Source of the DNA: Candidatus Amesbacteria bacterium GW2011_GWB1_47_19
GTDB lineage: Bacteria; Patescibacteriota; Microgenomatia; CAZETR01; Amesbacteraceae
Assembly: GCA_001002325.1 (NCBI GenBank)
Contig: LCNZ01000001.1
Coordinates: 67,773-131,772, forward strand
Direction of reading: 5' to 3'
Length of the DNA stretch: 64,000 nucleotides
Made by a program: the position numbers and the translations under genes. Positions 31,306 through 64,000 of the stretch are shown one piece after another. Numbering within the stretch: the stretch's first letter is position 1; each line of letters starts with the position of its first letter. The notes beneath the pieces are model-generated. The model was not told the origin of the DNA, made no database searches, and saw nothing but the letters and a program-made list of their open reading frames with translations.

Positions 31306-32493
31306 TCAGTGCTCAGTCCCCATATTTAATATTAGCAGAGAAAACAGGATTACCAGGAGAAGGCTGTTTTGATGAGCGGTAAGCCAATAATGATCTGACA
31401 TCCCGGAAATTAATACTACAGCAACCGGAAGCAGTAATGAGCGGCCCTTGAGACGCGTCATAAAATAACACATTATTAAGAAAGCTGGGATGCCAAGTTC
31501 GGAAATGAGAAGAAGAAACACATTGTGTACGGGCTGAAGAGTGAGGTTATAGGGAACAGTGGTTAGGTTATAGTATGGTTGGGCGGATGGAACATATGCC
31601 CCCAACCCCACTCCCAGTAAAAGATGATCCTTGATGACCGATAAGGAAACCCCATATTGAGACAAACGCTCGGGGATGGAGGAGGGGTTACCGGGCATGA
31701 GAGCAGGAGAGTAGAAGAGTAGAAGAGAAGAAAAGAGTAAAAGACTAATTTTTAATTTTAAATTTTTAACTTTCAGTAAGACCAAAAACACTAAGAATAT
31801 CGCTTCAATAATAATAGCTGTTCTGGAGAAGGTTACCGGAATGGTTATGATAGATGCCAGGATAGCGATTTTAGATATTAGAGATTTTGGATAGAGATAA
31901 TAGATAAGCAGGCCGGCGACTAACAGAAAACCGGCGAGAGCGTTGGGGTGAGGAAAAGTGGCATACGGCCTGAGTGTAAGTCCCAGGTTCCAAGTCTCAA
32001 ATTCCAAGTCTATTTTGGATATTCCGGGAGTAGACAAATTAAAAGTGCGTTCTCCCAACCAGTACCAGAGTCCACCAACTGAGGACTGTTTTAAAAACTG
32101 GATCCAAGTCAAAAACGAAACCCAGATTAAAGACAATTCTAATGACCAATTTAATATTTTTGGTAATTTTAAATCAAATTTAATAGTCAAATAACCAAAT
32201 AACCAAAAATATTCCAGAATCCGAATCCATCTAATGATAGTGACCATGGGGGAAAATGAAAAAAATGTATTCAGGGTTATGAAAATCAGAATCGGGAGCT
32301 GGATATGGGTACGAAATCCGGATATAAGAAAAAGAGACAGTATTAGGAGGTCTGTGAAATATAGAGTGGGAGAGAGGTAATCAAGAGGTAGGCCAGAAAC
32401 AAAGCTGAATGAGGGCCAGAAATGTAAGCCTAACTGGGAAGGAAGTGTTAATAGGAGAAGAATAAAAATATATTTTTCCAGACGACCCGACAC
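31306..32493 (-). CDS. O-antigen ligase (Wzy_C) family membrane protein
   Basis: About 10 TM helices plus HNVFLLLISELGIPAF, the Wzy_C H-N...E-G signature. It contains three in-frame short-repeat insertions. Confidence 0.55.
   Translation of the reverse strand: MSGRLEKYIFILLLLTLPSQLGLHFWPSFSFVSGLPLDYLSPTLYFTDLLILSLFLISGFRTHIQLPILIFITLNTFFSFSPMVTIIRWIRILEYFWLFGYLTIKFDLKLPKILNWSLELSLIWVSFLTWIQFLKQSSVGGLWYWLGERTFNLSTPGISKIDLEFETWNLGLTLRPYATFPHPNALAGFLLVAGLLIYYLYPKSLISKIAILASIITIPVTFSRTAIIIEAIFLVFLVLLKVKNLKLKISLLLFSSLLLFYSPALMPGNPSSIPERLSQYGVSLSVIKDHLLLGVGLGAYVPSAQPYYNLTTVPYNLTLQPVHNVFLLLISELGIPAFLIMCYFMTRLKGRSLLLPVAVVLISGMSDHYWLTAHQNSLLLVILFSLLILNMGTEH
31690..31775. repeat. composite purine-rich (GAGTAGAAG)n plus AT-rich repeat inserted in O-antigen-ligase-like gene
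   Basis: gagtagaagagtagaagagaagaaaagagtaaaagactaatttttaattttaaatttttaac. On the minus strand it encodes KVKNLKLKISLLLFSSLLLFYS. Confidence 0.75.
32150..32215. repeat. AT-rich octamer repeat (AAATAACC)2 and flanking AT repeats in O-antigen-ligase-like gene
   Basis: caatttaatatttttggtaattttaaatcaaatttaatagtcaaataaccaaataaccaaaaata. Confidence 0.7.
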
Positions 32494-32501
32494 GGATCAA
32501 A

Positions 32502-32966
32502 TTATACGGCCCGGGGGGAGATGATGACACTACGGTTGCGTCCGAGACCTTCGGAGGATGTGGTGACCTGGGGATGATCGGACAGATACATGTGGACTAT
32601 TCGGCGTTCTCCGGCGGGCATAGGCGGAAGAGAGTGGGGCTGTCCGGTGGCAATTACCCTGGTAACTGCTGAGTCGGCGAGAGAGTGAAGTGCGGACTCT
32701 CGACGTTCCCGATAATCATTGACGTTTATCGAGAGATTGAACCAGCGATCGAAACGGGAGTGCAGGTGCTGACCCAGAACCAACTGGAGAGCAGAGAGGT
32801 TTTCACCATGATATCCGATGATCAGTCCGGGTTCTGCCGTTTTCAGAAATACCTGCAGGGAATCAGGGTCAGTACCGGCTTCCACAGAGACTCCAGTAGG
32901 TGCGGGGAATTCGAACCGGTCAAGGAAGTCGTTGATGAGGGTAATGATTTGGCGGTTGGTATCCAT
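32502..32966 (-). CDS. Jag/KhpB-like RNA-binding protein (KH + R3H)
   Basis: KH-like region (IIGYHGENLSALQLVLG) and an R3H-like C-terminus, located downstream of yidC as in jag. Confidence 0.7.
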   Translation of the reverse strand: MDTNRQIITLINDFLDRFEFPAPTGVSVEAGTDPDSLQVFLKTAEPGLIIGYHGENLSALQLVLGQHLHSRFDRWFNLSINVNDYRERRESALHSLADSAVTRVIATGQPHSLPPMPAGERRIVHMYLSDHPQVTTSSEGLGRNRSVIISPRAV

Positions 32967-33772
32967 CAGCGGTGTATTTTTTTCAACCAGGGGGTCAGAC
33001 CTCCCCAGCCGGTAGCGTAATATTGCTGGATTATACTGACGGCAGAGAAAATAAACCAGTAAATAACCAGTCCCGATGGAAACTGGAAACCTATAACCAG
33101 CGTCATTAAGGGGAAAAGATATAACATTTGCTGTTGGGCGTCCACCATGGCATCATCCGAAGCCTGAGGTGTCTTTTGGGCCAGTTTCTTTTCGCGATTC
33201 ACTACAGGCAGCATCATTTTTGAACTGATCAGCTGAACGAATGCCGAGAGTAGTAAAAAAATACCAGGAATGGGGATAGGGATGGAGGGGACACGGGAAA
33301 CATCCGGCTTTGTAAGGTCTAAATACAGAAATTTTGTAGACAAATGAAAATCCGAATCAAGACGGTTGAAGGAATAAAGCAGGGGATTAAGATGTTCTAC
33401 TAAACCGGCGCCATTTGGCTTGAGGACCGAATTGAGGGCGCTGAAGAGGGCAATAAGCACTACCAGCTGGATTATCTGAGGCAGGCATCCGGCGGCGGGG
33501 TTGGCTCCGTGTTGTTTGTAAAGCTCAGCCTGGGCAAGCGCCAGTCCCTGTTTATTCCCGGTGAATTTTTCTTTTAGTTTGGCCAGCTCAGGTGCCAACT
33601 CCTGCATTTTTTTACCCAACTTAAGGGACGGCAGAATCAGGGGGGTCATGGCTAAACGGAGGATAACAGTAAGAATAATAATCGCCCAACCTAAATTTCC
33701 AGTTACTTTATACAGAGCAATAAGCGAGTTTATCAGAGGATGAAAAAGCAATAGATTCCAAAGTTCGCGCAT
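32966..33772 (-). CDS. yidC: membrane protein insertase YidC (short form)
   Basis: LYKQHGANPAAGCLPQIIQLVVLIALF, the conserved YidC TM2-3 region. Confidence 0.85.
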   Translation of the reverse strand: MRELWNLLLFHPLINSLIALYKVTGNLGWAIIILTVILRLAMTPLILPSLKLGKKMQELAPELAKLKEKFTGNKQGLALAQAELYKQHGANPAAGCLPQIIQLVVLIALFSALNSVLKPNGAGLVEHLNPLLYSFNRLDSDFHLSTKFLYLDLTKPDVSRVPSIPIPIPGIFLLLSAFVQLISSKMMLPVVNREKKLAQKTPQASDDAMVDAQQQMLYLFPLMTLVIGFQFPSGLVIYWFIFSAVSIIQQYYATGWGGLTPWLKKIHR

Positions 33773-33789
33773 ATATTAGATATGAGTAA

Positions 33790-34023
33790 TTAAGGAACGG
33801 GGTCGAAACCACCGGAGCGTCCGGGGTGGCAGCGCAAGATACGCTTTAATCCAAGTACACTGCCGTGTAGAATACCATATTTAACTATGGCTTGGTAGGT
33901 ATACTCTGAGCAGCGGGGAGTGTAGCGGCAGGCGGATCCGGGAAAAAGAAGGTGCATAAAGCCGGTATCAAATGAGAGGTATTTTTGATAAAACCGTATC
34001 AAGTAGAGCAGCAATTTCCGCAT
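33790..34023 (-). CDS. yidD: membrane protein insertion efficiency factor YidD
   Basis: YQKYLS...[19 protein letters not shown] is the YidD signature. Confidence 0.85.
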
Positions 34024-34306
34024 CCGTTAAGTTTAGCATTGTACGGGAGGGGTGAAGAATGATGTCATTGCGAAGAGCTAATGGCGATGTATTCAGGAGA
34101 TTGTAGATTTTGCGGCGAAAGCGGTTTCTGACAACTGCCCGCTTGTGAAATTTAGAAGATGTGACGATGGCAAAACGAGCTGGTTGTTCGTTGTTCGTTA
34201 TTCGTTGATAGTAAATTAGAGAAAGATTGGGGGTGCGAATTTTGCGGCCGAGTTTTTGGACAGCTAAAAAATCAGTACGATGCAATCGGCGGGATTTGGA
34301 TATCAC
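33968..34306 (-). CDS. rnpA: ribonuclease P protein component
   Basis: The RNR motif region ([14 protein letters not shown]), the protein size, and the position between rpmH and yidD. Confidence 0.8.
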
Positions 34307-34600: not shown

Positions 34601-34612
34601 ACTATAAAGGAG

Positions 34613-35965
34613 ATGATAGATAAAGAAAAAGTTTGGAAAGCAGTATTGGAAGCTTTGAGACTGGCAGTGTCTCCGGGTACTTACGGCACCTACTTAAAAC
34701 AGACGGAGTTGGCTGATGTCAGAGAAAAAGACGGCCGGCTATTGTGCGAGGTGGGTTGCGCTTCTTCTTTTGCCAAAAACACCCTAGAGCAAAGGTATTG
34801 GGGTCAAATCACGGAGGAATTGGAAAGGGTGACAGGTAATAAGTGTGAAATAATTTTGATAGTAAAAAGCAGAAAAGCAGATGAACAGGATAGTATAAGT
34901 GGTCCATTATTCGAGAGTAAAGAAGTCATTAAGGGAGGTTGGAAAAAAGCAAACCTGCGGGAAACTTTTACTTTTGACAACTATGCAGTAGCCGGCAGTA
35001 ACCAAATGGCGTTTGCGGCATCCCAGGCGGTAGCCCGCAAGCCGGGAGAGGCATATAATCCCTTGTTTATTTACGGCGGAGTAGGGGTGGGCAAGACGCA
35101 TTTAATGCAGGCGATCGGTCATGAGGTATTGAATAACGACAGAGGTTCAGTGTTGTTTTGTTCCGGAGAAGAATTTACCAATGATCTGGTGGAAGCCATC
35201 AGGTTTAAATCCACGGATAAAATCAGGCTTAGGTACCGGAAAGTTAAACTACTGATGATAGACGATGTGCAATTTATCGCGGGTAAACCAACCGTCCAGG
35301 AAGAGTTTTTCCATACTTTTAACGCCATCCAAAAGGAAGGCGGTCAAATCGTAATGACTTCCGACCGGCCACCGGCGGAAATTTCCAAACTTGAGGAAAG
35401 ATTGAGAAGCCGTTTCGGAGCGGGATTGATTGTGGACATCGGTCCGGCCGATTTTGAATTGAGAACCGCGATTCTGCTCATTAAATCCAGGCAAAGAAAA
35501 ATTGACCTGCCTATGGAAGCAGCCCAGGTAATTGCGAATAAAATTGAGGGGGTAAGAGAGCTTGAGGGTTTTTTGGTCCGGTTGATTTCCGAAGCGGAAA
35601 TGAAACAACAAGAAATTACTAAAGAGTGGGTGGAAGAAGTCCTGGAAATCGCCAAACCCGGTAACGGACGAGCTAAGATAATCACTTCTACGGAAGTGTT
35701 TTCTGTGGTGGGCAATTATTACAGGCTTGGTATACAACAATTGAAAGGGGAGAGAAGAACTAAAATGATAGCCTGGCCGAGACAAATATTAATGTATTTG
35801 CTGCGATATGAGTTGAAACTACCGCTGACAGAAGTGGGCAGAATGGTGGGAGACAGGGACCATACAACAGTAATGCACGGATCAAATAAAGTGAAACTGG
35901 GGATGGAGACAGACCAAAGAATAAAAACAGAGGTTGAAGACATTAAGAAAAAGTTGTTTACATGA
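34613..35965 (+). CDS. dnaA: chromosomal replication initiator DnaA
   Basis: AAA+ Walker A GGVGVGKTHL, sensor motifs and a C-terminal HTH (DHTTVMH). I moved the start to the ATG at 34613 because the ORF-track start (34553) would run through the DnaA boxes. Confidence 0.95.
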   Translation: MIDKEKVWKAVLEALRLAVSPGTYGTYLKQTELADVREKDGRLLCEVGCASSFAKNTLEQRYWGQITEELERVTGNKCEIILIVKSRKADEQDSISGPLFESKEVIKGGWKKANLRETFTFDNYAVAGSNQMAFAASQAVARKPGEAYNPLFIYGGVGVGKTHLMQAIGHEVLNNDRGSVLFCSGEEFTNDLVEAIRFKSTDKIRLRYRKVKLLMIDDVQFIAGKPTVQEEFFHTFNAIQKEGGQIVMTSDRPPAEISKLEERLRSRFGAGLIVDIGPADFELRTAILLIKSRQRKIDLPMEAAQVIANKIEGVRELEGFLVRLISEAEMKQQEITKEWVEEVLEIAKPGNGRAKIITSTEVFSVVGNYYRLGIQQLKGERRTKMIAWPRQILMYLLRYELKLPLTEVGRMVGDRDHTTVMHGSNKVKLGMETDQRIKTEVEDIKKKLFT

Positions 35966-37313: not shown

Positions 37314-37903
37314 AGTTTTTGAACTTTCTCCGTTTGCTCTTCTATACCGCCAGATGAACCCTCCGGAACCGGTAAAGGCTGAAAGCGATGATATATGGGT
37401 TCCTGAAAAACCCCATAAACGGAAATAACATATTCAGTATTGTAGGTCCAGGAAGGTTTGGGGGCTACGTAGAGGGTTCTTTTATCCTGGCTGACCTGGG
37501 CGTTTACCGGCTGAAAAGGGGAAACAAAGACACGAATCGAGGTAAGGTTGATTTCCTGATCAAAAGTAAAAGCCAAAGCCATTTCGGGAAAAGCAAGCTT
37601 GGGTTGAGCGTCGGGGGGATAAATTTGCACCAATTTGGGGTCGGGAGTTGGATATTGGGTGGTGTTGGGTTGGATTATGACCGGAGGCGGGGGCGGGGGA
37701 GTAGGGGAGGAGATTTGCAGATAGAGATAAACGAGTGAAATAAGGGACAAAACGCACAATCCCAGAAGAATTTTTTTAGATTTAGGAGAAAAGCGCGAAA
37801 ACATGAATTTAATTACAGAAATAATTTTCCGGTTTGACCCAAATACCTCCAATAGATACCTCCATATGTAAATGGGTAAAGCCCATAGGATAAAGAGTAG
37901 CAA
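37310..37903 (-). CDS. membrane-anchored Pro-rich protein, hypothetical
   Basis: TM (ILLGLCVLSLISLVYLYL), a poly-Pro run and a beta-rich C-terminus. The start probably lies at an internal Met because the ORF overlaps its upstream neighbour. Confidence 0.35.
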   Translation of the reverse strand: MLLFILWALPIYIWRYLLEVFGSNRKIISVIKFMFSRFSPKSKKILLGLCVLSLISLVYLYLQISSPTPPPPPPVIIQPNTTQYPTPDPKLVQIYPPDAQPKLAFPEMALAFTFDQEINLTSIRVFVSPFQPVNAQVSQDKRTLYVAPKPSWTYNTEYVISVYGVFQEPIYHRFQPLPVPEGSSGGIEEQTEKVQKL

Positions 37904-48632: not shown

Positions 48633-50258
48633 TCACGAGCCGGCTTTTTTACCCCAACCGGAGATTGTATTAGAGAAGCTTCTCGCGGCTTTGGCAGCCG
48701 ATTCCAGGGAGGACGCGGCTTGTTTGTCAGCCGGTAAACCTCCTGCTCCAATTTGACCCGCGGCATACTCAAGCGATGAGGCACCTAAACCAACACCTTT
48801 AGAGGGAAGGAGAAAGGCGGGGCCGAGGGCTTGGCCAATGGCTGTGCCGTATTTGAATTGCGGAGCTTTGAGGGCGTCGCGGACCATTTCAGCCGCTTTG
48901 GGAATAAGAGCAAGAATGGCGTAACCCATGACGAAAGAAAAAAGGAAACCGACTGTACCGACAAAAGGCAGAGAAGGCCAGCCCGAAGTAGTCAGGCCGG
49001 TATTTACGGTACAGCCGAGTGGGGTGAGGCGCCATGTTGTACCGGAAAAAGCGGCGAGAATAGCATCGATAATTGTCCGAATGGGAGCAGGAAACGGAAT
49101 TAGGGAACAAAGAGGTTGCCAAAAAAGCATATTCAGAAGCAGCATGAGGGGGACGACAACAAAGACAGCGGCATTGGCAATTAAATTTCTGAACCAGGCG
49201 CCGAATCCCTGGTTGCCGGGAAGAAGCCCGAGCATAATCTGCCAGGGACCGACAATAATAAGAAACATCAAGGTGAGGTAAGTCTTAAGAAGCATCCAGA
49301 AGACGCGCAACAGCAGCCAACTGATGAGGACGATGAGGACGATGCTGATGAGCGTAAGAACGGGAAGGATAAAGTTTAGGAGAGGAATGAAGATGGAAAA
49401 GCCGCCTGCTGCACTAACGAGGATAAATGGAAGCATATAGTATGCAAGGACAACTGCGAAGCCACCGGTGGCAAAAAAGCGGATAGAACTACCCATAAAG
49501 GCTGCCCCAAAAACTCCACTGTAGCTTAAAGCCCCCAACACCAGGGTGATGATCACAAAAATGGAATCCAGGACCAGACCGGCAATTGCGTAGGAGAAAG
49601 TGACTAAAAGCAAAGTAATAATAATTTTGGGTATCATGAGCTGAACGGAGATGGCAGTCTGGGGATTGATCTTGACCCGGAACATGATCATGAATGCGGC
49701 GGCGACAAGGATGACAATCATGAGCAGATAGACGATATTCCTGGAGGTAGCCCAGAGCCGATTGATAGCTGATAGGCTGGTGAAACCATATCCCTGGGCG
49801 TGGGCAGGGGAAGCTATGGAGAATTTGGCCAGGCTATTGCTGATATCTTCAATGCCGGAAGCGGGAAGATTGGTATAAATTCCTGATATTCCAGCCATAG
49901 CCAAACCCGGTATGCCAAGAGCGGCATAATTTTGTAGGGAGGGGGATTCCTGAGATAAAAGTTGCCGGAGAAAATCAATGATTTCACTTGACTCGTCCAG
50001 TCCGGCCGTAGGGTTGAGGATGAGATATAGACTGTCCAGGATCCAGACCACCTGGGCATAGGTGTAACGTTCTCCAAAAATGGCGTCCTGTGGATCCGCG
50101 GTAACTTTCTGGCCGAACTCTTCGGGGGAGGGGTTATACCAGGGAGTGGCAGCGGCGGCGTGCGGAGTGAACGTTGAGAGTAATAGCGTAAAAGAATACA
50201 AGAGGACTAGAAATGTGAAAGATGCCTTTTTTATGAAAGAGGACATGTGGTTATACAT
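48633..50258 (-). CDS. VirB6/TrbL-like polytopic membrane protein
   Basis: Signal-peptide-like N-terminus, an approximately 150-aa periplasmic-like region, at least 6 TM helices and a Gly/Ala-rich C-terminal tail. It sits in the T4SS cluster. Confidence 0.5.
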   Translation of the reverse strand: MYNHMSSFIKKASFTFLVLLYSFTLLLSTFTPHAAAATPWYNPSPEEFGQKVTADPQDAIFGERYTYAQVVWILDSLYLILNPTAGLDESSEIIDFLRQLLSQESPSLQNYAALGIPGLAMAGISGIYTNLPASGIEDISNSLAKFSIASPAHAQGYGFTSLSAINRLWATSRNIVYLLMIVILVAAAFMIMFRVKINPQTAISVQLMIPKIIITLLLVTFSYAIAGLVLDSIFVIITLVLGALSYSGVFGAAFMGSSIRFFATGGFAVVLAYYMLPFILVSAAGGFSIFIPLLNFILPVLTLISIVLIVLISWLLLRVFWMLLKTYLTLMFLIIVGPWQIMLGLLPGNQGFGAWFRNLIANAAVFVVVPLMLLLNMLFWQPLCSLIPFPAPIRTIIDAILAAFSGTTWRLTPLGCTVNTGLTTSGWPSLPFVGTVGFLFSFVMGYAILALIPKAAEMVRDALKAPQFKYGTAIGQALGPAFLLPSKGVGLGASSLEYAAGQIGAGGLPADKQAASSLESAAKAARSFSNTISGWGKKAGS

Positions 50259-50285
50259 TAAATGATTGTATATAGTTTGGCAAGG

Positions 50286-53180
50286 TCAGGGGGCGGGGAA
50301 AGGGCAGCTGCTAATATAATCCCAGGTTGTATTGGTAATATTTTGGGCATACTCATCGGTATCTGCCGTGGGAATACATTTATTTAAGTTTGTATTGTAA
50401 CTAAATTTTGCAGCAAAGACACGAGCCCAGCCGTATTGAATAATTTCAGCGGAACAGGTGGACTTGATTTGTTTAACGAAGTTGATAAAGGCGGTGATCT
50501 GGGCAAGCCAGTTATTATGAGGATAAAAGACCATGCCAAAATCGGAGACGTTTCCGATTTTTAAATAGTTACTGGTATCGCTTTCATTCATCCAAATTAA
50601 TAAAACCAGGGCGGGATTGACTCCGGCCTGATTGGACAGAAAGACTGCATCATTGAAACACTCTTCGGCATAGGGGTACCCTTGGGTGGGAAGGCCGTAC
50701 CAGCGGCGGGCAACGTCGATATAATTTGCGCGGTTGACACAGGCGACAGCTTGAAGAGGGCGGGACTTGTTGCAGTTGATGCCCTTGGTACCGATGGGCG
50801 GGGAGTAGGCGTCGATGATGTCCAATGGACGCCAAAGACGTTGGAAGTTAAGATTTTCGTAAGAAACGGCTCCTCCGAGAAAATGATCAGCCAGACTGCC
50901 GAGGCGGTCAAAGTAAATATCTGCCGGGGCACCACCGGAACCGGAATCCACACGGGGATTGTTGAGATTTGAGGTGCTGCCCGAGTATTGGGCAGTATCC
51001 TGTCCGGGGACGGTAGTTTCGATATCGTGTTCTCCGGTCAGGTAATCGGCACCGGGCCCCAAAATATCCGGTTTCTTGGGTAGGAAACGGCGAAGAAGGG
51101 AATCGGCACCAACAACCAGGGAGTCATAAAGGCGTTCGACCAGAGGCGTTTTAATAAAAACTGAAATGCGGGTATTTGAATTCAACTCCCGACGCGGCCA
51201 GGCTTCACACTTGCCGGGCTCTTCGTCCTGCCATTCGCAAAGGCCGGCTCCGGGGTAAGGGTAATTTTCACAAGCGGATTTGCCGAAAGTCTTGCAGATG
51301 GGGTAGGGACCATAACAGCCCCCCGGCTGATAACCCTGGCATTCACCCCAGCAGCAGATGCGATCCGGGGTGCAACCAGCATTTTCCACGGCGCAGGGCA
51401 GGGGAAAGTCTACCAAATGCTCGGGAGTATATTGGAATACCTGGTGGTAGGTGAGCGTGCTGCCGATGGATGACCCAACCAGATTGTCGCCGGGGCTGGA
51501 CCGGGCATCAGAAAGTTCGCAGGAGGGGGGATCCGGTCTGAACAATGGATTGGGAGCAAGAGCACCGGGGATGACCTCGGTGTTGCGGGTCGGCAGGCCG
51601 CTTTTGAGGTAGTCCGGACGCTGGACGACTGTGGAATCATCGATGCCCTGATGCTCGGAAATGCGTTGGGAAACAAAATCACGGCTGGAGGTATCCGGCA
51701 CACGGGTTGGAGTAGGGGGGAGGGGGAGATAAAAACTTCGACTGATTTCCGTCAGGGCATTACTGGACTTGAGCCCAGGGAAGTAGAGTCGGGAATCGGA
51801 AAGTTCACCGGCATTATCGATTATCAGGGAGGGATTGCGTCCGGGACAACTATTGATCAGGTAACCATCGGAATCAGGTTGGAAAGAAACATCCGGAATG
51901 AAACTAATGGTGCTCTCGCCGGTAACATCTTCACGAGAGGAGTAGGGAACCTGGTACATCATGGCGGAATTAAGGCTAACGCCGTTCAAGCGGACAACCT
52001 TGGCTCCCGGTCCGCCACAATTGACTACTTCATCTAGAATTAAAGCCGAGAGGCAGGTGCGGAGGTTTTGAATGGGCTGGAAGCCAATTTTTAGAAAATC
52101 CTGAACAAATTGGCCATCATTACCGAGGACTGTTAATCCTTCGCGGATGAGGGCTGCCGCAAGGGAGGCAGGTGAGGCGAAATCGGCTTGGGTAATGTGG
52201 GGTATAGCCTGAATAACCTGAATCAGATCCTGGGCTACCATACGGGCGGCAAGGTAGGCTAAACGGGGAAGGGTGAGCAGATTGGAGGCTGCGGCTTTGA
52301 GACAAGTGAGAACGGCGTTGACTATTTGGGCTACGGTGCGGCTTTCGCGGCAGCCGACGATGTAATTGTGATATTGTTTTTCAACGGGGCCGTTTAAAAG
52401 AGCAGTGCGCAGATCCAGCTGCGAGTCCCTGGGTAGAAGCTTATTGACCGGGCCGGAATAAGTATTAAGGCGGACCATTTCGTTCGGGTTATCAGGATTT
52501 AAGGGAATGTGCTCCGAACTTTGGACAGTGCCGCTCAGATACCAGTCGAGGAAGAGGTTGACCTGGACTTCATCGTCCAGATCCTCCTGAGTATTGCTGA
52601 TGATGGGGAACTTGGAGTTTTCCAGACCGACGTTAGTATGCCAGGTGACGGGATGGACCAGACAAACTTGGCCACCACAGAGATAATAATTTTGATAAGC
52701 GAAGGTATCACCGTTGGAATTTTCCAGGTCGGCCGTACAGGGATTGAAAGACTGGCCGATTAGATTTCTGGGAACGACATCAAGGACGGTATAGGAACCG
52801 TGGGTGTTGAGGCTGTTGGCACAGGAAAAAGTGAGGTATTTGTTATCGGCGGCGGCAGGAGCCTCGGGAGTTTTGCGGGGGATGAGAGGATCGCAGGGAG
52901 ATGCGGGATAGGGGCGAAGGGGGTGGAATTCCGGAGAGACGGTCTGGGGGCAATTGGTGATGTTGGTGATATATTTGAGGGGGGTGAAACCAAAGGTGAC
53001 GGGGTCACGGGGAACGGAAAATGTGGGTGTTTGGGCGTGGATAGGAGAGTTAAAGAGCAGAAGAGCGGAAGAGAACAAGAGTGTAAGATTTATTAATATC
53101 CGACGAACCATAAGCATATTATACATATGAAGTGTCCAGCGTCCGAAGTTTGGGGGAATTAGCAGCCGGAGATGATACAA
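50286..53180 (-). CDS. large secreted Cys-rich protein, possible C-terminal cell-wall hydrolase (SLT-like ES motif)
   Basis: Signal peptide (LTLLFSSALLLFNSPIHAQ), a Cys-rich module (CCWGECQGYQPGGCYGPYPICK...), and a C-terminal region with LLIWMNESDTSNY, a possible lytic-transglycosylase E-S motif. The true start is probably an internal Met. Confidence 0.4.
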   Translation of the reverse strand: MYHLRLLIPPNFGRWTLHMYNMLMVRRILINLTLLFSSALLLFNSPIHAQTPTFSVPRDPVTFGFTPLKYITNITNCPQTVSPEFHPLRPYPASPCDPLIPRKTPEAPAAADNKYLTFSCANSLNTHGSYTVLDVVPRNLIGQSFNPCTADLENSNGDTFAYQNYYLCGGQVCLVHPVTWHTNVGLENSKFPIISNTQEDLDDEVQVNLFLDWYLSGTVQSSEHIPLNPDNPNEMVRLNTYSGPVNKLLPRDSQLDLRTALLNGPVEKQYHNYIVGCRESRTVAQIVNAVLTCLKAAASNLLTLPRLAYLAARMVAQDLIQVIQAIPHITQADFASPASLAAALIREGLTVLGNDGQFVQDFLKIGFQPIQNLRTCLSALILDEVVNCGGPGAKVVRLNGVSLNSAMMYQVPYSSREDVTGESTISFIPDVSFQPDSDGYLINSCPGRNPSLIIDNAGELSDSRLYFPGLKSSNALTEISRSFYLPLPPTPTRVPDTSSRDFVSQRISEHQGIDDSTVVQRPDYLKSGLPTRNTEVIPGALAPNPLFRPDPPSCELSDARSSPGDNLVGSSIGSTLTYHQVFQYTPEHLVDFPLPCAVENAGCTPDRICCWGECQGYQPGGCYGPYPICKTFGKSACENYPYPGAGLCEWQDEEPGKCEAWPRRELNSNTRISVFIKTPLVERLYDSLVVGADSLLRRFLPKKPDILGPGADYLTGEHDIETTVPGQDTAQYSGSTSNLNNPRVDSGSGGAPADIYFDRLGSLADHFLGGAVSYENLNFQRLWRPLDIIDAYSPPIGTKGINCNKSRPLQAVACVNRANYIDVARRWYGLPTQGYPYAEECFNDAVFLSNQAGVNPALVLLIWMNESDTSNYLKIGNVSDFGMVFYPHNNWLAQITAFINFVKQIKSTCSAEIIQYGWARVFAAKFSYNTNLNKCIPTADTDEYAQNITNTTWDYISSCPFPAP

Positions 53181-53530
53181 ATGGAAAAATTTGTAAAATT
53201 AACGCCCAGAAATTTTCCGGCGAGGCTAAGGATTATCCAGGCGGAAAGCGATACCATCAAACCCAACACGGAATAAGTGATGGTGGATTGGGCACGGGCA
53301 GCGGATTCCTTGTTAGCTCCAGCCGATAGAAACTGGAAACCGCCGATGATCAACATGATCAGGGAGGCGGTTGCGACAAGAGTGAGAAGGGAAGCGAGGA
53401 CCCGACTGAAAACCGTTTCCAGTCCGGTGATTCGGGCGGGAGGGGCAGGGGTAGCGGCGGAAACCTGAGGCACATAGAGTATAAGAGTGGAAGAGTAGAA
53501 GAGTAGAAGTTTTAATTTGGCTTTGGACAT
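53159..53530 (-). CDS. T4SS pilin-like protein (VirB2/TrbC topology), paralog 1
   Basis: Signal peptide, hydrophobic helix 1, a short polar loop (SAGANKESAARAQ) and hydrophobic helix 2. It is a paralog of the eight downstream genes. Confidence 0.55.
   Translation of the reverse strand: MSKAKLKLLLFYSSTLILYVPQVSAATPAPPARITGLETVFSRVLASLLTLVATASLIMLIIGGFQFLSAGANKESAARAQSTITYSVLGLMVSLSAWIILSLAGKFLGVNFTNFSICIISGC
53470..53515. repeat. purine-rich 8-mer repeat (AGTAGAAG)n encoding the pilin paralog 1 signal peptide
   Basis: tataagagtggaagagtagaagagtagaagttttaatttggc. The reverse complement encodes MSKAKLKLLLFYSSTLIL. Confidence 0.75.
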
Positions 53531-53594
53531 ACGAATATATTAGCACAAAAATCACCCCCGGAATCCGGGGGTGATTTCGCCTAACGCCAGGCTT

Positions 53595-53978
53595 TTAGAT
53601 GTTGTTCAGGTTGAGACTGATAACATCGACGTTAAAGAGGACGCGGATGATGTAAAGAAGGGCGTAGGCCGAGAAAACCACAGCCAAGCCGATAAGGGCG
53701 TTGGTGATTTTTTTCCTGGCCTTTTCCGTACCTTCCTTGTCACCTCCGGCGAGAATCCACTGAATACCTCCCCACAAAAGGAAGATAAATGCGGCAATAC
53801 CGGCTGCGCCCAAGAGAATATTGATGGCTGCCGTGACGTACCTGGTAGGAGTGATATTGGCGATATACGGGTACTTGGTTGAGTTGATGGAGACGTTTTC
53901 TCCGGTGACGGCCAATACACGGCCAGGAAGAGCGGCAGCTCCGGTCAGTACGAGAGCTACTTTTTGTGTTTTACTCAT
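53595..53978 (-). CDS. T4SS pilin-like protein, paralog 2
   Basis: LLGAAGIAAFIFLLWGGIQWILAGGDKEGTEKARKKITNALIGLAVVFSAYALLYII is a two-helix hairpin with the conserved AGGDK loop. Confidence 0.6.
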   Translation of the reverse strand: MSKTQKVALVLTGAAALPGRVLAVTGENVSINSTKYPYIANITPTRYVTAAINILLGAAGIAAFIFLLWGGIQWILAGGDKEGTEKARKKITNALIGLAVVFSAYALLYIIRVLFNVDVISLNLNNI

Positions 53979-54047: not shown

Positions 54048-54437
54048 TCAAATGGTGTTAAGGTTGACGTAGAAGGAGTTTATGTTGAATAAAATCCGAA
54101 CAATGGTGATAAGTGCGTAGGAAGAAAGGACAATGGACAAGCCTACCAAAGCGTGGAGGATGCGTTTGCGGGCCCGCTCAATGCCTTCTTTATCTCCCCC
54201 GGACATGATCCACTGAATACCTCCAACAAGAAGGTAGATAAAGGCAATGATACCGGCGGCACCAAGAAACAGATTAATCCCTGAGGTAACCAGACGCCGG
54301 GGAGTAATGGTGTAGAGTTTGTTGTAGGGAGAGGCGGGATCAATGAGATTGACGTCGGCAGCGGAAGCATGAGAGGAGAAGAGTGTAAGACTAGATGAGT
54401 ATAAGAGAATTAGCGTGTGGAGGAATCTTTTCTTCAT
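54048..54437 (-). CDS. T4SS pilin-like protein, paralog 3
   Basis: LGAAGIIAFIYLLVGGIQWIMSGGDKEGIERARKRILHALVGLSIVLSSYALITIV is about 70% identical to paralog 2 over the core. Confidence 0.6.
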   Translation of the reverse strand: MKKRFLHTLILLYSSSLTLFSSHASAADVNLIDPASPYNKLYTITPRRLVTSGINLFLGAAGIIAFIYLLVGGIQWIMSGGDKEGIERARKRILHALVGLSIVLSSYALITIVRILFNINSFYVNLNTI

Positions 54438-55522: not shown

Positions 55523-55882
55523 TCAGGTGACGGGTGGATTCATGAAATTAATTCCGGTAACTACTGTCAGTATCTGAAGTATAAAATATGAGGCGATGAC
55601 TAGCAAGAAGCCGAATAGAGCCGAGTTCAAAATACCGCGTTTTTTTGCCAATTCACGGGCATCATCCGGACTACCTCTCTGGAAACGGCCGGACATGACA
55701 ATCATGTTGAAGCCATAATAGATGATAATCAGGAAAAAGATGACAGCGGCGATGACCATGATATTGGGGAGGAGAGTGGAGATTAATGAACCGGGGGTAG
55801 CGGCGACATTTTTTGCTCCGGGGTGAGGTCCGAAAAATGTTCCCGGGATATTGACAACAGCAATGGGGGGAGAAGTGTTCAT
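55523..55882 (-). CDS. T4SS pilin-like protein, paralog 7
   Basis: VIAAVIFFLIIIYYGFNMIVMSG...ARELAKKRGILNSALFGFLLVIASYFIL is a divergent copy with the same two-helix layout. Confidence 0.5.
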   Translation of the reverse strand: MNTSPPIAVVNIPGTFFGPHPGAKNVAATPGSLISTLLPNIMVIAAVIFFLIIIYYGFNMIVMSGRFQRGSPDDARELAKKRGILNSALFGFLLVIASYFILQILTVVTGINFMNPPVT

Positions 55883-59608: not shown

Positions 59609-61462
59609 ATGCAGGTCAGAGTCGGGAAAATCGTCGGACGGCTGGGGGGTAGGTGGTGGGGCCAGGTGCATGACTATACGCCGGTGACAGAAGAAGGAAG
59701 CGGCGGGACTGAAAAAGGTCGGCTGGTGGCTGTGCTGGGTTTTGAGAGAGGAGTGGATGAAGGACAGGTGGGATTGGCAGAAGCGGGGCGGGAAATTCTG
59801 GCCAGGGTGCATGAGATGTATTACGGAGGAGAAGAGTCCGGACTGGCGGGAGTGCGCCGGGCAGTGAATGAAGTGGCCGGGGAATTTTCGGGAGCGGAAG
59901 TCGGGTGCATTGTACTGAAGGATGGAGTGATTTATGCAGCGGCGGGTCCGGGGGTGGGAATATGGGTGAGAAACAAAGATAAAGAGGGATGGCTCATAAG
60001 AGCAGGTGAACCAGAAAGCGGGAGAGTGGAAGTGATGGGGTATAGCGGGAAGATGACCGGGGATATGACGGTGGTGATGGGGAACAGCAGATTCTGGCAG
60101 AGCGTGCCGGAGGGAATGCTGAGAGCTGTGGTGACAAATTTGAACGGGGAAATGCAGTCGGCTGTGGAAACGCTGGCAGCGGTGGAACACGGGAGCGATA
60201 AAGGAGGAGGAGAAGTAGGAACAATAATAAAGATATCGGGAATGGGAGAGGAGAAAGGAGAAAGGAGAGATGAGAAAGAGTTGAAAAGGCCGGATTTTAG
60301 AAACCGGGCGGGCAGACTGTGGGGCAGGCTGCGGGAAAAATGGCCCCGGTCGGGAGTAGTGTATGTGGGGTACCAAGATAAAACCAAAGCGAGGAAAAGG
60401 ACCGCTTATGCGGGTTTGGGATTTATGGCCGTAGTGCTGGTGCTTGTGGGAGGGGGAAGAATCGCCAGTCAGAAAAAAGCCAGGGAAATGGGAATGGAGA
60501 GAGAGGCAGTAGCCCAGGTGACGGAAAAATTCCAACAGGCGAAAGTGCTGGTGGATATGAATCCGGTGAGGAGCCGGGAACTGTTGGCCGAAGTGGGAGA
60601 AGCGGTGAAACAACTGGAGAGCCAAAATGTAAAAAACGAAGATTTGGAGAGAATAAAAGAGGAGATAGGTGAGGTGCTGGGCGCGGCGTCCGGAGTAAAG
60701 CAGGCGGAGGCCAGGGAAGTGGTAAATCTGAACCTGGTGCGGGAGGGAATGGTCGGGAAGCAGCTGACAGGCAGCGGAGAAAAATTGTTGGTGCTGGATG
60801 ATGAGGGCAGCAGACTGACGGAGATAAATCCGAGGACCGGAGCGGCAAAGGTGATAGCGGGGCCGGAAAGTCTGGGACAAGCCAGACTGGTAGCACTGGA
60901 GGAGGAAAAAGTTGCGGTATTTGCGGATAAGGGAGTGGTAGTGTGCGCGATAAGGGGGTGGAAATGTGCGACAGAGATCGGGAAGGATGACGAATGGGGG
61001 GAAATTAAACACATAGGTATATTCGGAGGCGGTGTATATCTTTTGGACAGCGGTAAGGGAAAAATCTGGAAGTATCCTGCGACGGAGAACGGATTTGGAA
61101 AGAAAAAGGAATGGACAGGCGGAGTAGAGGGGGGTACGAGTATGGCAATAGACGGCAGTATCTGGCTAATGTCCGGTACGGAGTTGAGGAAATATACTTC
61201 GGGAGAGAGGGAGACTTTTGAGGTAACCGGACCGGATAAGAACTGGGGAGGACGCGCGCAGGCGTATACCGCATGGGGGTTGGAAAATCTGTATATTCTG
61301 GATGGGGAAAACAAGCGGGTGGTAATATTGAAAAAGAACGGAGAATATATAGGACAGATGGTGAGCGATAAATTGGAACATGCCACAAGTATGGTAGCCG
61401 ACGAGGCAGGAAAGAAAATATTCTGGGTGGCTAGGAGCCAAGTGTGGGAGGCAGGGATGTGA
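59609..61462 (+). CDS. hypothetical protein (N-terminal globular domain, central TM, C-terminal repeat/beta-rich domain)
   Basis: 617-aa ORF with Gly/Glu-rich composition and a TM at about residues 265-285 (AGLGFMAVVLVLVGG). I prefer it over the antisense 520-aa His/Pro-rich ORF. Confidence 0.4.
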   Translation: MQVRVGKIVGRLGGRWWGQVHDYTPVTEEGSGGTEKGRLVAVLGFERGVDEGQVGLAEAGREILARVHEMYYGGEESGLAGVRRAVNEVAGEFSGAEVGCIVLKDGVIYAAAGPGVGIWVRNKDKEGWLIRAGEPESGRVEVMGYSGKMTGDMTVVMGNSRFWQSVPEGMLRAVVTNLNGEMQSAVETLAAVEHGSDKGGGEVGTIIKISGMGEEKGERRDEKELKRPDFRNRAGRLWGRLREKWPRSGVVYVGYQDKTKARKRTAYAGLGFMAVVLVLVGGGRIASQKKAREMGMEREAVAQVTEKFQQAKVLVDMNPVRSRELLAEVGEAVKQLESQNVKNEDLERIKEEIGEVLGAASGVKQAEAREVVNLNLVREGMVGKQLTGSGEKLLVLDDEGSRLTEINPRTGAAKVIAGPESLGQARLVALEEEKVAVFADKGVVVCAIRGWKCATEIGKDDEWGEIKHIGIFGGGVYLLDSGKGKIWKYPATENGFGKKKEWTGGVEGGTSMAIDGSIWLMSGTELRKYTSGERETFEVTGPDKNWGGRAQAYTAWGLENLYILDGENKRVVILKKNGEYIGQMVSDKLEHATSMVADEAGKKIFWVARSQVWEAGM

Positions 61463-61463
61463 G

Positions 61464-63093: not shown

Positions 63094-63412
63094 ATAAAGT
63101 GAACAGCAGGCAGCGGTGGATGGGAGTGATAGCGGTCCAGAAGTTTTATAAATCGGAAGAACAGTTGGCATGGCAGGGGGTGGGCATAATTAATGTTACT
63201 ACCGGGCAAAAGGGGGAGAGCTGTGGTATAACTGGTGGCTGGTCGGAGCGGGAGCGGTTCTGGTGACGGCGATATTAATTTGGAGGAAATGAGTGGGAAT
63301 TGGGTGGCAATACTGGTGCCGATTCAACTGAGTGTGATATGGATGGCGGGGATGTTGGGGATGGCTTTTTGGAGAGAAACGAGGCGGTCGGGGTCAGGTT
63401 AGGCATTTAACG

Positions 63413-63785
63413 TGGTGGAGATGGGGGGAGTTGAACCCCCGTCTGAAATGGTCTGAAAATCCGGTTGTACAAGCTTTTTGTCCGATGAAGGACGGTTTGC
63501 AGTTAGTGGTCTTGGCTGAAGCGAGTCTAACTACAGTACTGCTGCAGCGCACCCCGATTGGTTTTCGCCTTGATAATGCAGTCGGGGAAGCAAAATTAAG
63601 ACGCTCTTCGTTCCAGCTTAAGCGAATGCGTACGCAGAACGAGAGATGAAAGGATTGATCTTGGCGACCAATTCTCCCACACGTGCTTTTAAGTCAGCAC
63701 TTTAGGTTGAACCTGATTTACGAGTAGTGTTCGAACTCGGCTTGCCGAATTTAAAGGTGCCAATTCATCGATGCCCGGCATCCCC
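63413..63785 (-). ncRNA. ssrA: tmRNA (ssrA)
   Basis: The minus-strand 5' end GGGGAUG pairs with the 3' CAUCUCC-ACCA end, giving a 7-bp acceptor stem with G3:U70. The T-arm is GGGGGUUCAACUCCCCCC. An internal ORF-like frame GCC AAG AUC ... GCA UUC GCU UAA gives a tag ending AYAFA*. Found by eye, not by a tmRNA scanner. Confidence 0.7.
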
Positions 63786-63847
63786 AAGATGACCATATTG
63801 TACCACAATATAGCCTTGAGTGGAAGAGCGGGAGAGTAGAAGAGTAT

Positions 63848-64000
63848 AAGTGAAGTATGGACTGGATGGATTTGGTTTTTCCTAAGAAATGTGTGGGTTG
63901 CGGACATTGGGGAAAATATGTGTGCGATAGTTGTGAAGTAGGCCTGTGGGAGGAGGAACAAATATGCCCGATTTGCGCGCGGGCATCGCGGTACGGATTG
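63848..64000 (+). CDS. ComF-family protein (double zinc-ribbon N-terminus), partial at window end
   Basis: MDWMDLVFPKKCVGCGHWGKYVCDSCEVGLWEEEQICPICARAS shows the CxxC...CxxC...CPxC pattern typical of ComFC-family N-termini. The ORF runs off the window. Confidence 0.5.

Follow-up and report, generated by a model that had tools for sequence, protein, structure and literature searches.

The window, a stretch of 64,000 nucleotides from a Candidatus Amesbacteria genome (a small groundwater bacterium of the CPR), carries short tandem arrays of an 8-nt unit. On balance, we lean towards reading these as lineage-specific, microsatellite-like octanucleotide arrays that were taken up as signal-peptide and helix cores in a repeat-prone genome. 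They look like a by-product of such a genome put to use, not a mobile cassette, and in this genome they are not demonstrably an unstable phase-variation switch. The unit reads TTCTACTC on the minus strand (core CTCTT plus three variable bases), and four to six copies lie head to tail at each of five sites. An earlier note on this DNA had reported closely related sequence at five loci; it is present at all five in one 8-nt register, and the peptides quoted there are correct. The arrays and their host or neighbouring genes are as follows (x/32, matches to the consensus).

31306..32493, minus strand: Wzy_C / O-antigen-ligase-like membrane protein, host of array A (Pfam PF04932, E=2.8e-12)
31701..31742, minus strand: array A, within a variable transmembrane helix of the Wzy_C gene (29/32)
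34867..34898, minus strand: marginal array (22/32), whose purine strand codes the DnaA domain-II linker KSRKADEQDSIS
50178..50209, minus strand: sixth array, strongly decayed, in the leader of a 541-aa polytopic protein (23/32)
50286..53111, minus strand: large secreted protein, longest ORF 964 aa, no Pfam match
53039..53086, minus strand: array B, six decayed units, in the leader h-region of the large secreted protein (25/32)
53159..53530, minus strand: VirB2-like T4SS_pilin paralogue 1 (PF18895, 29.1 bits, cut-off 26.6)
53477..53508, minus strand: array C, in the leader h-region of pilin paralogue 1 (30/32)
54048..54437, minus strand: VirB2-like T4SS_pilin paralogue 3 (PF18895, 28.3 bits)
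54373..54412, minus strand: array D, five decayed units, in the leader h-region of pilin paralogue 3 (26/32)
63413..63785, minus strand: tmRNA (ssrA), neighbour of array E (Rfam RF00023, 85.6 bits; 5' end at 63785)
63818..63849, minus strand: array E, non-coding, 33-64 nt upstream of the tmRNA 5' end (27/32)

Synonymous-codon resampling shows that the 8-nt periodicity is a feature of the DNA. With each locus's peptide held fixed and the codon usage of minus-strand genes applied, P was <=4e-4 at each of the coding loci A-D. The five loci are more than compositionally alike: identity at a lag of 8 nt was 0.60-0.76 at loci A-D against 0.33-0.38 expected (sd 0.07), with 0.76 against 0.38 for array A and lag-8 tests of P=4e-4, 5e-5, and 3e-4 for arrays B, C, and D. 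Given the peptide LLLFYSST, the observed codon string has a probability of 7.6e-6. The pattern AGTAGAAGAGTAGAAG, with <=3 mismatches, matches 12 times against 0.54 expected, on the plus strand only and at the five loci only, and CTCTYNNNCTCTYNNNCTC matches 9 times against 0.05. TRF gives period-8 arrays at 31700-31748, 53053-53081, 53476-53509, and 63818-63850, and a scan with a 32-nt consensus (cut-off >=21/32) yields eight clusters, all of them on the minus strand, including the sixth locus at 50178-50209.

Perfect units, at most two per array in the window, are central, and variant units lie at the array edges; TTATACTC, TTCCACTC, and TCCYGCTC recur. On the minus strand, array A consists of TTTTACTC..TTCTTCTC TTCTACTC TTCTACTC TCCTGCTC (plus strand GAGCAGGA GAGTAGAA GAGTAGAA GAGAAGAA (AA) GAGTAAAA; peptide SLLLFSSLLLFYSPAL), array B of TTACACTC TTGTTCTC TTCCGCTC TTCTGCTC TTTAACTC, array C of TTCTACTC TTCTACTC TTCCACTC TTATACTC, array D of TAATTCTC TTATACTC ATCTAGTC TTACACTC TTCTCCTC, and array E of TTATACTC TTCTACTC TCCCGCTC TTCCACTC; the sixth array has TAGTCCTC TTGTATTC TTTTACGC TATTACTC. 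Array E does lie, as the earlier note had it, in the non-coding DNA between ssrA and comF (63785 to 63857). It ends 7 nt before the ATG of comF (63857), a gene on the opposite strand. Its position is not conserved: the comF-tmRNA spacer of the related locus L212 is without an array, and the array of L212 overlaps the smpB 3' end.

Such an array can be translated in all three frames of its pyrimidine strand. The unit length of 8 nt is 2 mod 3, so that three units encode FYSSTLLL from every frame, without a stop codon, and this peptide of an almost pure pyrimidine unit is uncharged and mostly hydrophobic. The opposite strand carries TAG, and a perfect array therefore codes in this orientation only. 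Three to five units give 8-13 residues, which is close to the size of the h-region in a Sec signal peptide, and would therefore have been taken up as hydrophobic leader cores. All three phases are in use (phases 1, 0, and 2 in 9, 4, and 4 of 17 predicted signal peptides), with leader arrays of 3-5 units starting at codon 6-18 of predicted Sec-type leaders, where the prediction is based on n-h-c architecture, AxA sites, and homologue conservation beginning past the predicted cleavage. The enrichment in leaders comes from ~81 kb of the source genome, with every array falling in a 32-kb part close to dnaA and the T4SS cluster, and is not a whole-genome statistic.

Cleavage is predicted between MVRRILINLTLLFSSALLLFNSPIHA and QTP in the large secreted protein, MSKAKLKLLLFYSSTLILYVPQVSA and ATPAPP in pilin 1, MKKRFLHTLILLYSSSLTLFSSHASA and AD in pilin 3, and …FTFLVLLYSFTLLLSTFTPHAAA and A in the 541-aa protein. 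The large secreted protein likely starts at M24, where TATAAT-N6-ATG is found, giving 941 aa (gene callers give 946, 941, or 930 aa); in all of its homologues an n-h-c leader precedes a conserved EFHPLRPYP region. Pilin 3, whose protein cluster has two members of 129 aa each, has pilin 2 as its closest paralogue (58% identity), with an unrelated leader. No 5-mer of the cyclic peptide occurs in 149 representatives of the pilin homologues, and none of the NCBIfam leader-domain models matches; judged by these comparisons, the array leader is not family-conserved among pilins.

The host genome is generally prone to 7-8-nt tandem repeats: period-7/8 arrays number 14 against 0-1 in shuffles, some of them in frame within TsaC/TsaE and TsaD. 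The neighbourhood is that of a T4SS, with a VirB4-like ATPase, PrgI/VirB3, and at least eight tandem T4SS_pilin paralogues, adjoining dnaA, dnaN, rnpA, and yidC. In about 15 of 49 genes, including those of pilin 1, the 941-aa protein, and the 541-aa protein, TANNNT lies exactly 6 nt 5' of the start codon without a Shine-Dalgarno sequence, which suggests leaderless mRNAs.

Relatives carry the same arrays, at metagenome loci that were ascertained with a 20-mer drawn from the arrays themselves. There, arrays occur in leaders (L131, L133, L161, L162, L164, L173, L186, L193, L196, L203, L223, L243), in transmembrane helices (Wzy; PMT_2 in L137 and L205), in linkers (PrgI, DnaA), in protein tails (SmpB, L20), in 5' UTRs, and antisense to genes. 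The pyrimidine strand is the C-rich strand in 14 of 16 loci from relatives; for the window the corresponding split is 8 to 0. The earlier note's restriction to T4SS-cluster proteins was too narrow.

Orthologues show how such leaders may turn over. The syntenic pilin-1 orthologue in L243 has three perfect units plus TTCCACTC where the window has two. In the L243 orthologue of a 119-aa protein, a 36-nt array-containing stretch directly after the ATG makes a leader, and the window's protein is without one. SpoIID-like orthologues in L131 and L164 likewise begin with an array leader, which is missing from the window gene; these two share 47% amino-acid identity and use the same codon at only 44% of their conserved residues, yet their array is 100% identical over 29 nt with synonymous changes on either side. 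This identity could also reflect nucleic-acid selection, not homogenisation. Arrays that are decayed in the window are better preserved at orthologous sites: L133 has (TTCTACTC)3, encoding FILLLLFYSSTLLLSPALVSA, at the place of the sixth array in the 541-aa ORF, and L186 (homologue P0129) has TTACACTC TTCTACTC TTCTACTC TCCTGCTC for array B. The DnaA linker has clearer arrays at the orthologous site in L134 and L126, and neighbouring units resemble each other more within one species than across species (GAGCGGGA twice; GAGCAGGA/GGGCAGGA; AAAGCAGA twice), a species-specific homogenisation. The earlier note had also placed the module in an internal segment of the O-antigen-ligase-like protein. 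Array A is indeed there, but the segment is a transmembrane helix that is ancestral and has kept its length, and an insertion is rejected; homologues of this protein come from Candidatus Amesbacteria, synteny with rnpA-yidC-jag-dnaA is conserved, and the L126 orthologue has an octamer array at the same position (24/30 nt identical).

The arrays would arise, and be kept uniform, through slipped-strand or unequal exchange inside individual arrays, with some array-to-array copying inside one genome, and they persist where the protein tolerates low-complexity sequence, as their distribution shows. Uptake would have supplied leaders of pilins and other secreted T4SS-cluster proteins and some transmembrane helices, and gain, loss, and decay may then lead to leader turnover between orthologues. 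The earlier note's suggestion of simple-sequence-driven signal peptides is supported by the DNA-level periodicity, the three phases, and presence or absence among orthologues. With only 2-4 copies of an 8-nt unit, slippage should be infrequent, and no copy-number variant was seen among the assemblies compared. The same unit and a few variant units recur at non-homologous loci in several genomes (TCCYGCTC in 10 of 10 loci with TCC), which independent slippage alone does not explain.

That hydrophobic leaders in pyrimidine-rich minus-strand codons are alike by chance has next to no probability. The whole plus strand of the window is G-rich, and minus-strand genes are C/T-rich on their coding strands and favour CTC, CTT, TCC, and ACC, as this reading would have it, but it is refuted by the common register, the pattern counts, and the resampling, and it sits badly with a non-coding array E and with the same arrays in relatives. 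Contingency loci of the Neisseria opa type, in which a shift of one unit changes the leader frame and switches pilins or other secreted T4SS proteins on or off, would mean a variable surface for a host-attached bacterium, and we regard them as quite unlikely here. Unit length and position in leaders of surface or pilus proteins fit, as do the opa pentamer CTCTT and an L/F/S-rich peptide in all frames (PMC3960869), relatives with 3-5 perfect units, orthologues one perfect unit apart, and a pilin array tandemly amplified like variable systems (PMC12102498). Against this, the window's arrays have at most two perfect units, and no array copy-number variant was found in more than 20 assemblies: pilin 1 (26 contigs, exact protein), pilin 3 (22 contigs), and six array-bearing proteins of relatives had no length or frame variants, nor did the large secreted protein besides differing start calls, and the loci examined included no out-of-frame 'off' allele. 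Variation is visible in the same kind of data, in which a poly-G/Gly tract (38341-38363) differs among 9 of 10 assemblies. Some arrays lie in dnaA, Wzy, and PMT_2, genes for which an on/off switch is implausible.

It is doubtful, too, that ectopic gene conversion, or illegitimate recombination between arrays, spread copies of a portable module of ~25-40 nt from locus to locus, a process that would swap or install leaders on unrelated proteins and may mediate tandem pilin duplication or deletion. Identical strings of 26-29 nt (ACTTATACTCTTCTACTCTCCCGCTCT) at non-homologous loci (array E, a PMT_2 helix, an smpB tail, antisense to a HEPN gene, and two leaders) speak for it, as do two L134 arrays 8 kb apart, which differ by one unit and share an exact 22 nt (TACTCTCCTGCCCTCCTGCTCT), an ATTAC flank, and the variant TCCTGCCC, absent from the other arrays examined. 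In addition, pilin 3 has a leader similar to that of pilin 1 and unlike that of pilin 2, its closest paralogue, the entire leader has been exchanged in the SpoIID-like orthologues, and the window's arrays are all direct repeats, so that recombination would fuse one leader to the next gene. However, between-genome identities are 20-mer-ascertained and largely expected from a small unit repertoire, array boundaries and unit order vary by locus as in mosaics, the arrays in Wzy and DnaA are ancestral and keep their position, and a scan of 20 cluster proteins turned up no recombinase. The start+signal-peptide cassette proposed in the earlier note fails on the flanks: start codons, promoters, and flanking sequence have nothing in common upstream of the arrays, and start contexts are gene-specific. 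Its AT-rich partner AAATTAAAA is not significant, with 5 copies where 2.3 are expected, a number reached in 9% of shuffles. This partner accompanies only two of the five arrays, and in the Wzy_C protein encodes a K-L-K conserved in orthologues. Rather unlikely as well is a nucleic-acid element, in which the CU-rich array keeps the 5' mRNA unstructured or binds a factor, enhancing translation or membrane targeting, with the peptide secondary. The 29 nt conserved between L131 and L164, the narrow distance of arrays from the start codon, the suggested leaderless mRNAs, and weak folding of the first 90 nt (-2.6 to -8.5 kcal/mol against -26 and -21 for array-less leaders) would agree with it. But low structure follows from composition (z-scores not significant), a CT-rich array-less leader (174-aa pilin) is equally unstructured, arrays also lie deep in genes, at 3' ends, antisense, and in either orientation to the neighbouring gene, and decay of arrays B, D, and that of the 541-aa protein argues against strong sequence constraint.

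Among known systems, the gene context matches the chromosomal T4SS of Patescibacteria, with VirB2-like pilin arrays near dnaA (PMC12102498); that paper describes the cluster, not repeat-encoded leaders, and 'signal peptide' occurs in it 0 times. Rickettsia palindromic elements, also short repeated DNA within genes translated at permissive sites of the host protein, are palindromic insertions of roughly 100-150 bp. The arrays here differ from them in form, being 24-48-nt tandem octamers without inverted termini, which in Wzy and DnaA replace sequence with length unchanged. Mycoplasma vsp and vsa genes have near-identical signal-peptide-region DNA across one genome's surface-protein genes with differing mature parts, and recombination within the leader region reassorts expression. 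Those leaders are long, conserved, non-repetitive blocks including promoter and start codon, served by site-specific invertases on inverted sites, whereas here only an 8-nt-periodic core is common and all copies are direct. Contingency loci of Haemophilus, Campylobacter, and Neisseria are likewise short non-triplet tandem repeats, located within genes for surface structures or upstream of them (an octanucleotide example lies upstream of hmwA, PMC3309571), but their tracts are long, perfect, and isolate-variable, and those here are short, partly decayed, and invariant across assemblies; in the window it is the poly-G tract that is hypervariable. Of the known systems, the Neisseria opa leader repeat, CTCTT, comes closest; its host is a pathogen and not a CPR bacterium, and opa switches at ~1e-3 per generation. 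Its arrays are several-fold longer than the 2-5 perfect copies found here, its unit is 5 nt instead of 8, and arrays here, unlike opa, also lie outside leaders and outside genes. In opa, (CTCTT)n forms a 'coding repeat' in the leader-peptide coding region (PMC3960869). Both systems thus have a pyrimidine-rich unit that contains CTCTT and is indivisible by 3, in the signal-peptide coding region of surface proteins, and both, as computed here, yield an L/F/S-rich hydrophobic core whichever frame is read.

The window derives from a Candidatus Amesbacteria bacterium (CPR, Microgenomates) and contains rpmH-rnpA-yidC-jag, dnaA, dnaN, and a chromosomal Patescibacteria T4SS-like cluster with a VirB4-like ATPase, PrgI, and at least eight tandem T4SS_pilin paralogues. 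In CPR organisms, the chromosomal T4SS with its pilin arrays is believed to be indispensable to host-attached life. The arrangement of this Patescibacteria cluster has already been described (PMC12102498). Elsewhere in the window, a free-standing minus-strand ORF (7485-8204) next to tRNA-Cys (8283-8357), flanked by a PEGA/SH3 protein and a P-type ATPase, has faint recorded matches to LAGLIDADG homing endonucleases.

An earlier note had described five related loci, and we verified all five at their coordinates. Aligned on the minus strand, they share a single 8-nt register with the consensus TTCTACTC, in which CTCTT is near-invariant and three positions are variable. A scan of both strands of the window with a 32-nt consensus returned eight clusters, all of them on the minus strand; two are marginal and near dnaA, and the others are as follows:

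31701-31742, minus strand: array A, within a transmembrane helix of a Wzy_C protein
53039-53086, minus strand: array B, in the leader of the large secreted protein (964-aa ORF)
53477-53508, minus strand: array C, in the leader of the VirB2-like pilin 1
54373-54412, minus strand: array D, in the leader of the VirB2-like pilin 3
63818-63849, minus strand: array E, intergenic, between the 5' end of the tmRNA gene and the start of comF
50178-50209, minus strand: sixth, decayed array, in the leader of a 541-aa ORF

Within the window, AGTAGAAGAGTAGAAG with up to three mismatches has 12 matches against 0.54 expected, all on the plus strand and all within A-E, and the looser pattern CTCTYNNNCTCTYNNNCTC has 9 against 0.05 expected. 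The earlier note had named a likeness in composition only as a result that would refute it. Besides the common register, when each peptide was kept and its synonymous codons were redrawn at the frequencies of minus-strand genes, lag-8 nucleotide identity was 0.33-0.38 (sd 0.07) compared with 0.60-0.76 observed (P ≤ 4e-4 at each of A-D), which rules out amino-acid or codon composition as the cause of the likeness at these four arrays. Given the peptide LLLFYSST, the probability of the codon string is 7.6e-6 under the same codon usage. An assembly artefact is also ruled out, as independent NCBI, JGI, and ENA assemblies are identical across the arrays. No more arrays were found in an additional 17.3 kb of the same genome flanking the window on both sides.

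The window is rich in short-period repeats more generally, with 14 non-overlapping tandem arrays of period 7 or 8 against 0-1 in shuffles (among them 614-644, 18258-18288, 22990-23041, 23535-23617, 23838-23861, 24146-24177, 24678-24706, 24777-24810, 25035-25058, 31295-31317, 34183-34207, and 60249-60278). Ten of these are period-7, a strong 7-nt excess. In-frame period-7 repeats occur in housekeeping genes: in TsaD, four copies of GATTCAA/GATACAA encode IQDSRYKIQDI, and a TsaC-TsaE fusion also contains in-frame tandem arrays. AATTTAC-type arrays lie in intergenic DNA of the window, and similar AATTTCC arrays occur in a relative (L182). Throughout the window and ~17 kb of flanks (L250, L251), G and purines prevail on the plus strand (GC skew +0.04 to +0.45), and the skew does not change sign at dnaA/dnaN (34.5-37.3 kb); either the replication origin is not beside dnaA or the skew has another cause. 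Codon usage is strand-dependent, with Leu CTG at 0.41 in plus-strand vs. 0.23 in minus-strand genes, and CTC at 0.03 vs. 0.23. In 14 of 16 relatives' loci among the matches listed, the C-rich strand carries the pyrimidine side of the array. Given the period-7/8 excess and the strand skew, we regard the octamer family as one product of a repeat-prone, strongly skewed genome.

Because 8 equals 2 modulo 3, three units (24 nt, 8 codons) give the same cyclic peptide in every frame: (TTCTACTC)3 encodes cyclic F-Y-S-S-T-L-L-L, stop-free in all three frames, and the reverse strand of the unit contains TAG. Four arrays are predicted to be h-regions of Sec-type leaders: B in the 941/964-aa protein, C in pilin 1, D in pilin 3, and the sixth array in the 541-aa protein. 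For both pilins and the 964-aa protein, this is in line with the earlier note. These calls rest on n-h-c layout, on AxA sites, and on homologue conservation starting just past the cleavage site, with signal peptidase I criteria of a basic n-region, an h-region of ~7-15 hydrophobic residues, and small residues at -3 and -1. Cleavage is predicted (heuristic scan and inspection) at VSA↓A in pilin 1, ASA↓A in pilin 3, IHA↓Q in the 941-aa protein, and AAA↓A in the 541-aa protein. The pilin-1 h-region is moderately hydrophobic, its best 9-residue Kyte-Doolittle mean of 1.7 falling under the heuristic cut-off of 1.9, so pilin 1 was called by inspection and homology, not by the heuristic. Across 17 array-bearing leaders (four from the window and 13 from relatives, among the matches listed), the 8-nt units fall at about codons 8-26; the array starts at codons 6-18, is 3-5 units long, and uses phases 1, 0, and 2 in nine, four, and four leaders, respectively. 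With this range of starts, this length, and all three phases in use, the array behaves as a phase-independent h-region.

The array peptide does not resemble a family-conserved leader motif of the YSIRK kind: none of its 5-mers occurs in any of 149 pilin-family representatives, NCBIfam models gave no curated leader-domain match to the N-termini, and the array codons are fixed, unlike the synonymously variable codons of such a motif. The peptide motif is young and lineage-restricted, not a family signature.

Arrays are also found well beyond the window. Scanning metagenomes with an array-derived 20-mer returned at least 120 stretches, where we roughly estimate ~7 by chance; because relatives' loci were chosen by this 20-mer, a comparison of array similarity within and between genomes is uninformative. 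Some of the matches listed are unrelated long microsatellites or one conserved gut gene, and at least about twenty are strongly strand-skewed loci of Amesbacteria type. A looser scan of genome contigs with CTCTTNNNCTCTYNNNCTCTYNNNCTC gave, among the matches listed, mostly unrelated genomes, the informative loci being L021, L064, and L122. In relatives, arrays lie in:

leaders, for example in L133 (orthologue of the 541-aa protein), L186 and L193 (964-aa homologues), L173 and L243 (pilins), L131 and L164 (SpoIID-like proteins), and L161 and L203 (unrelated secreted proteins)
transmembrane helices: PMT_2 glycosyltransferases (L137, L205)
linkers and tails: PrgI; also, with the purine strand coding, domain II of DnaA and the tails of SmpB and L20
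non-coding DNA: 5' UTRs and intergenic DNA

Since leaders, helices, linkers, tails, and UTRs all host them, arrays associate with sequence that tolerates low complexity, leaders being the commonest such site among the matches listed. The earlier note's focus on signal peptides of T4SS-cluster proteins is narrower than this distribution. Within the window, the earlier note had likewise placed the module inside an O-antigen-ligase-like protein and in non-coding DNA between ssrA and comF, and this agrees with the positions of A and E. The purine strand encodes charged segments in relatives (L212 6771-6800; L122 6882-6920; L159 4950-4985; L021 6288-6319), among them the SmpB C-terminal tail (AERESRRV, then stop), the end of ribosomal protein L20, and segments of a HEPN-domain protein (ERESGRVEEYKY) and TrmD (ESLRVEEFKSKSK), so that one DNA repeat yields a hydrophobic peptide from one strand and a charged one from the other. 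For array E, a search for orthologues via the neighbouring GT87 protein gave few homologues, and the only one fetched (L248) was not syntenic; tmRNA searches in L159, L171, L134, and L182 were negative, and one relative (L212) has a comF-tmRNA spacer with no array. A promoter scan around E gave no sigma-70-type match, and TATAAG-N6-ATG upstream of comF is merely a near match to the TANNNT pattern.

That pattern, a TANNNT hexamer (often TATAAT, TACAAT, or TAAAAT) exactly 6 nt before the start, occurs in ~15 of 49 genes, including pilin 1 (53531-53546), the 941-aa protein (53112-53127), the 541-aa protein (50259-50274), and genes 17068-18087 and 18121-18984. Shine-Dalgarno motifs are rare (5/49 genes). 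This suggests that leaderless mRNAs may be widespread in this Amesbacterium, and TATAAT-N6-ATG suggests M24 as the probable true start of the 964-aa ORF.

Comparison of orthologues shows how arrays change. Array A is no insertion: the helix has equal length in all Wzy_C homologues and is preceded by K-x-L-K-L-K-I. At this site an orthologue of 53% identity carries octamer units, 24/30 nt being identical, and a closer one (62%) has no array. The DnaA-linker array occupies an orthologous site in three species, again with no insertion, and its adjacent units are more alike within than between species, amounting to concerted evolution without length change. The pilin-1 orthologue in syntenic L243 has three perfect units plus TTCCACTC, and the window copy two plus TTCCACTC and TTATACTC. 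Presence and absence differ in a 119-aa pilin-like protein, leaderless in the window (55523-55882; MNTSPPIAVVNIPG...), whose L243 orthologue (10627-11010, minus-strand orientation of the stored locus) has a 36-nt array-bearing stretch right after the ATG, giving the leader MKKIITYTLLLFHSSTLSTFA followed by VNIPS.... Other window pilin paralogues (117, 145, 116, and 101 aa) likewise have no leaders. In the window, the SpoIID-like gene lies on the G-rich strand and has a leader of the usual kind; in its orthologues L131 and L164, an array-type leader stands in place of the whole leader. No window array holds more than two perfect units, against 3-5 in relatives (among the matches listed). For B, D, and the sixth array, relatives have the perfect form of which the window copy is a decayed version. 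Pilin 2 (53595-53978) and pilin 3 (54048-54437) are 58% identical and correspond to one gene in syntenic L243; this is a lineage-specific tandem duplication, with an array-type leader in one copy only.

Although L131 and L164 share just 47% identity, and codons agree at 44% of their conserved residues, their arrays have 29 nt in common, with synonymous changes to either side. Unrelated loci and genomes also share recurrent variant units (TCCYGCTC in 10/10 loci with TCC, among the matches listed), and in L134 two arrays 8 kb apart, one unit different, share a 22-nt exact stretch, carrying a variant unit absent from the other arrays examined, plus an ATTAC flank. The L131/L164 identity and the recurrent variants go beyond simple slippage; we read them as probable homogenisation within and between arrays, and selection on the nucleic acid may be another explanation.

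The earlier note had offered two readings, a portable start+signal-peptide cassette and simple-sequence-driven signal peptides, and our results support the latter but not the former. Nothing upstream is common to the arrays, unit order varies by locus, and the proposed AT-rich partner AAATTAAAA is not significant. In the register-aligned loci, we found nothing common outside the arrays, neither mobile-element ends nor shared flanks. The pilin 1, 941-aa, and 541-aa genes each have their own TANNNT-N6-ATG context, and pilin 3 is translationally coupled to its upstream gene. A weak form of portability survives as a rival, as array sequence may be copied between loci. Site-specific inversion or a shufflon is rejected: all eight window copies are direct and on one strand, and no recombinase domain was found in 20 cluster proteins. 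DNA uptake sequences, Chi, and KOPS-like polar motifs fit neither the density (6-8 in 81 kb, clustered) nor the tandem form, and integration at the tmRNA gene was set aside because array E flanks ssrA at its 5' and not its 3' end. As to an RNA-level role, mRNAs with arrays are almost unstructured over their first 90 nt (-2.6 to -8.5 kcal/mol, vs. -26 and -21 with array-less leaders), which would suit leaderless translation; however, the low structure is compositional, with z-scores that are not significant, and arrays also lie at a distance from 5' ends and in both orientations to genes.

The array design matches the CTCTT coding repeat of opa, but phase variation of the octamers is unsupported here. 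Window arrays have no more than two perfect units, B, C, and D are identical in four independent assemblies, and 90% clusters on 21-26 contigs (consensus assemblies) show no length or frame variants of pilin 1 (26 contigs), pilin 3, or the large secreted protein. Such variants were likewise absent from six array-bearing proteins of relatives (6/10 present in the collection). The same assembly data do reveal an unstable poly-G tract: as a positive control, the G23 run at 38341-38363 (minus strand), inside a 1146-aa T4SS-cluster ORF (37809-41249), differs in 9/10 assemblies. This tract is flanked by GGT/GGG (poly-Gly) repeats, with C-runs of 8, 11, 20, and 23 among assemblies and some Ns, and the called protein length is 1094-1579 aa across otherwise near-identical public assemblies; the locus may encode a genuinely hypervariable or phase-variable surface protein, or else it is simply hard to assemble. 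We consider it rather improbable that a sequence-specific process in Amesbacteria (perhaps also in other Microgenomates) both writes and re-homogenises identical octamer arrays at numerous loci, by ectopic templated copying or phase variation, so that T4SS pilins and secreted proteins have their export signals created, swapped, or switched.

If the simple-sequence-driven reading holds, it offers a concrete way, at the level of sequence, for export signals to be acquired, lost, and renewed, since a non-triplet repeat hydrophobic in every frame could be inserted or expanded behind a start codon regardless of phase. Coding repeats in leader peptides have to our knowledge hitherto been characteristic of pathogens, Neisseria among them; the reading would extend them to the Candidate Phyla Radiation, and would give a testable candidate for surface variation in CPR organisms, which as far as we know are not yet genetically manipulable. 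Were ectopic copying or phase variation true, these ultra-small episymbionts would have a repeat-based generator of secretion signals. For annotation, leaders in these genomes can be repeat-derived, and start-codon calls readily go wrong.

The closest known system is opa of Neisseria, with its CTCTT coding repeat in the leader peptide (PMC3960869). Unlike opa, the octamer arrays show no copy-number variation and no in-frame/out-of-frame alleles in consensus assemblies, and no perfect runs long enough for frequent slippage. Because instability and long perfect runs, two features that define opa, were tested for and not seen, we do not file the arrays as a contingency locus. In coding logic they are opa-like: in both, a tandem unit not divisible by 3 lies in the leader-peptide coding region and encodes a hydrophobic, stop-free peptide in all three frames.
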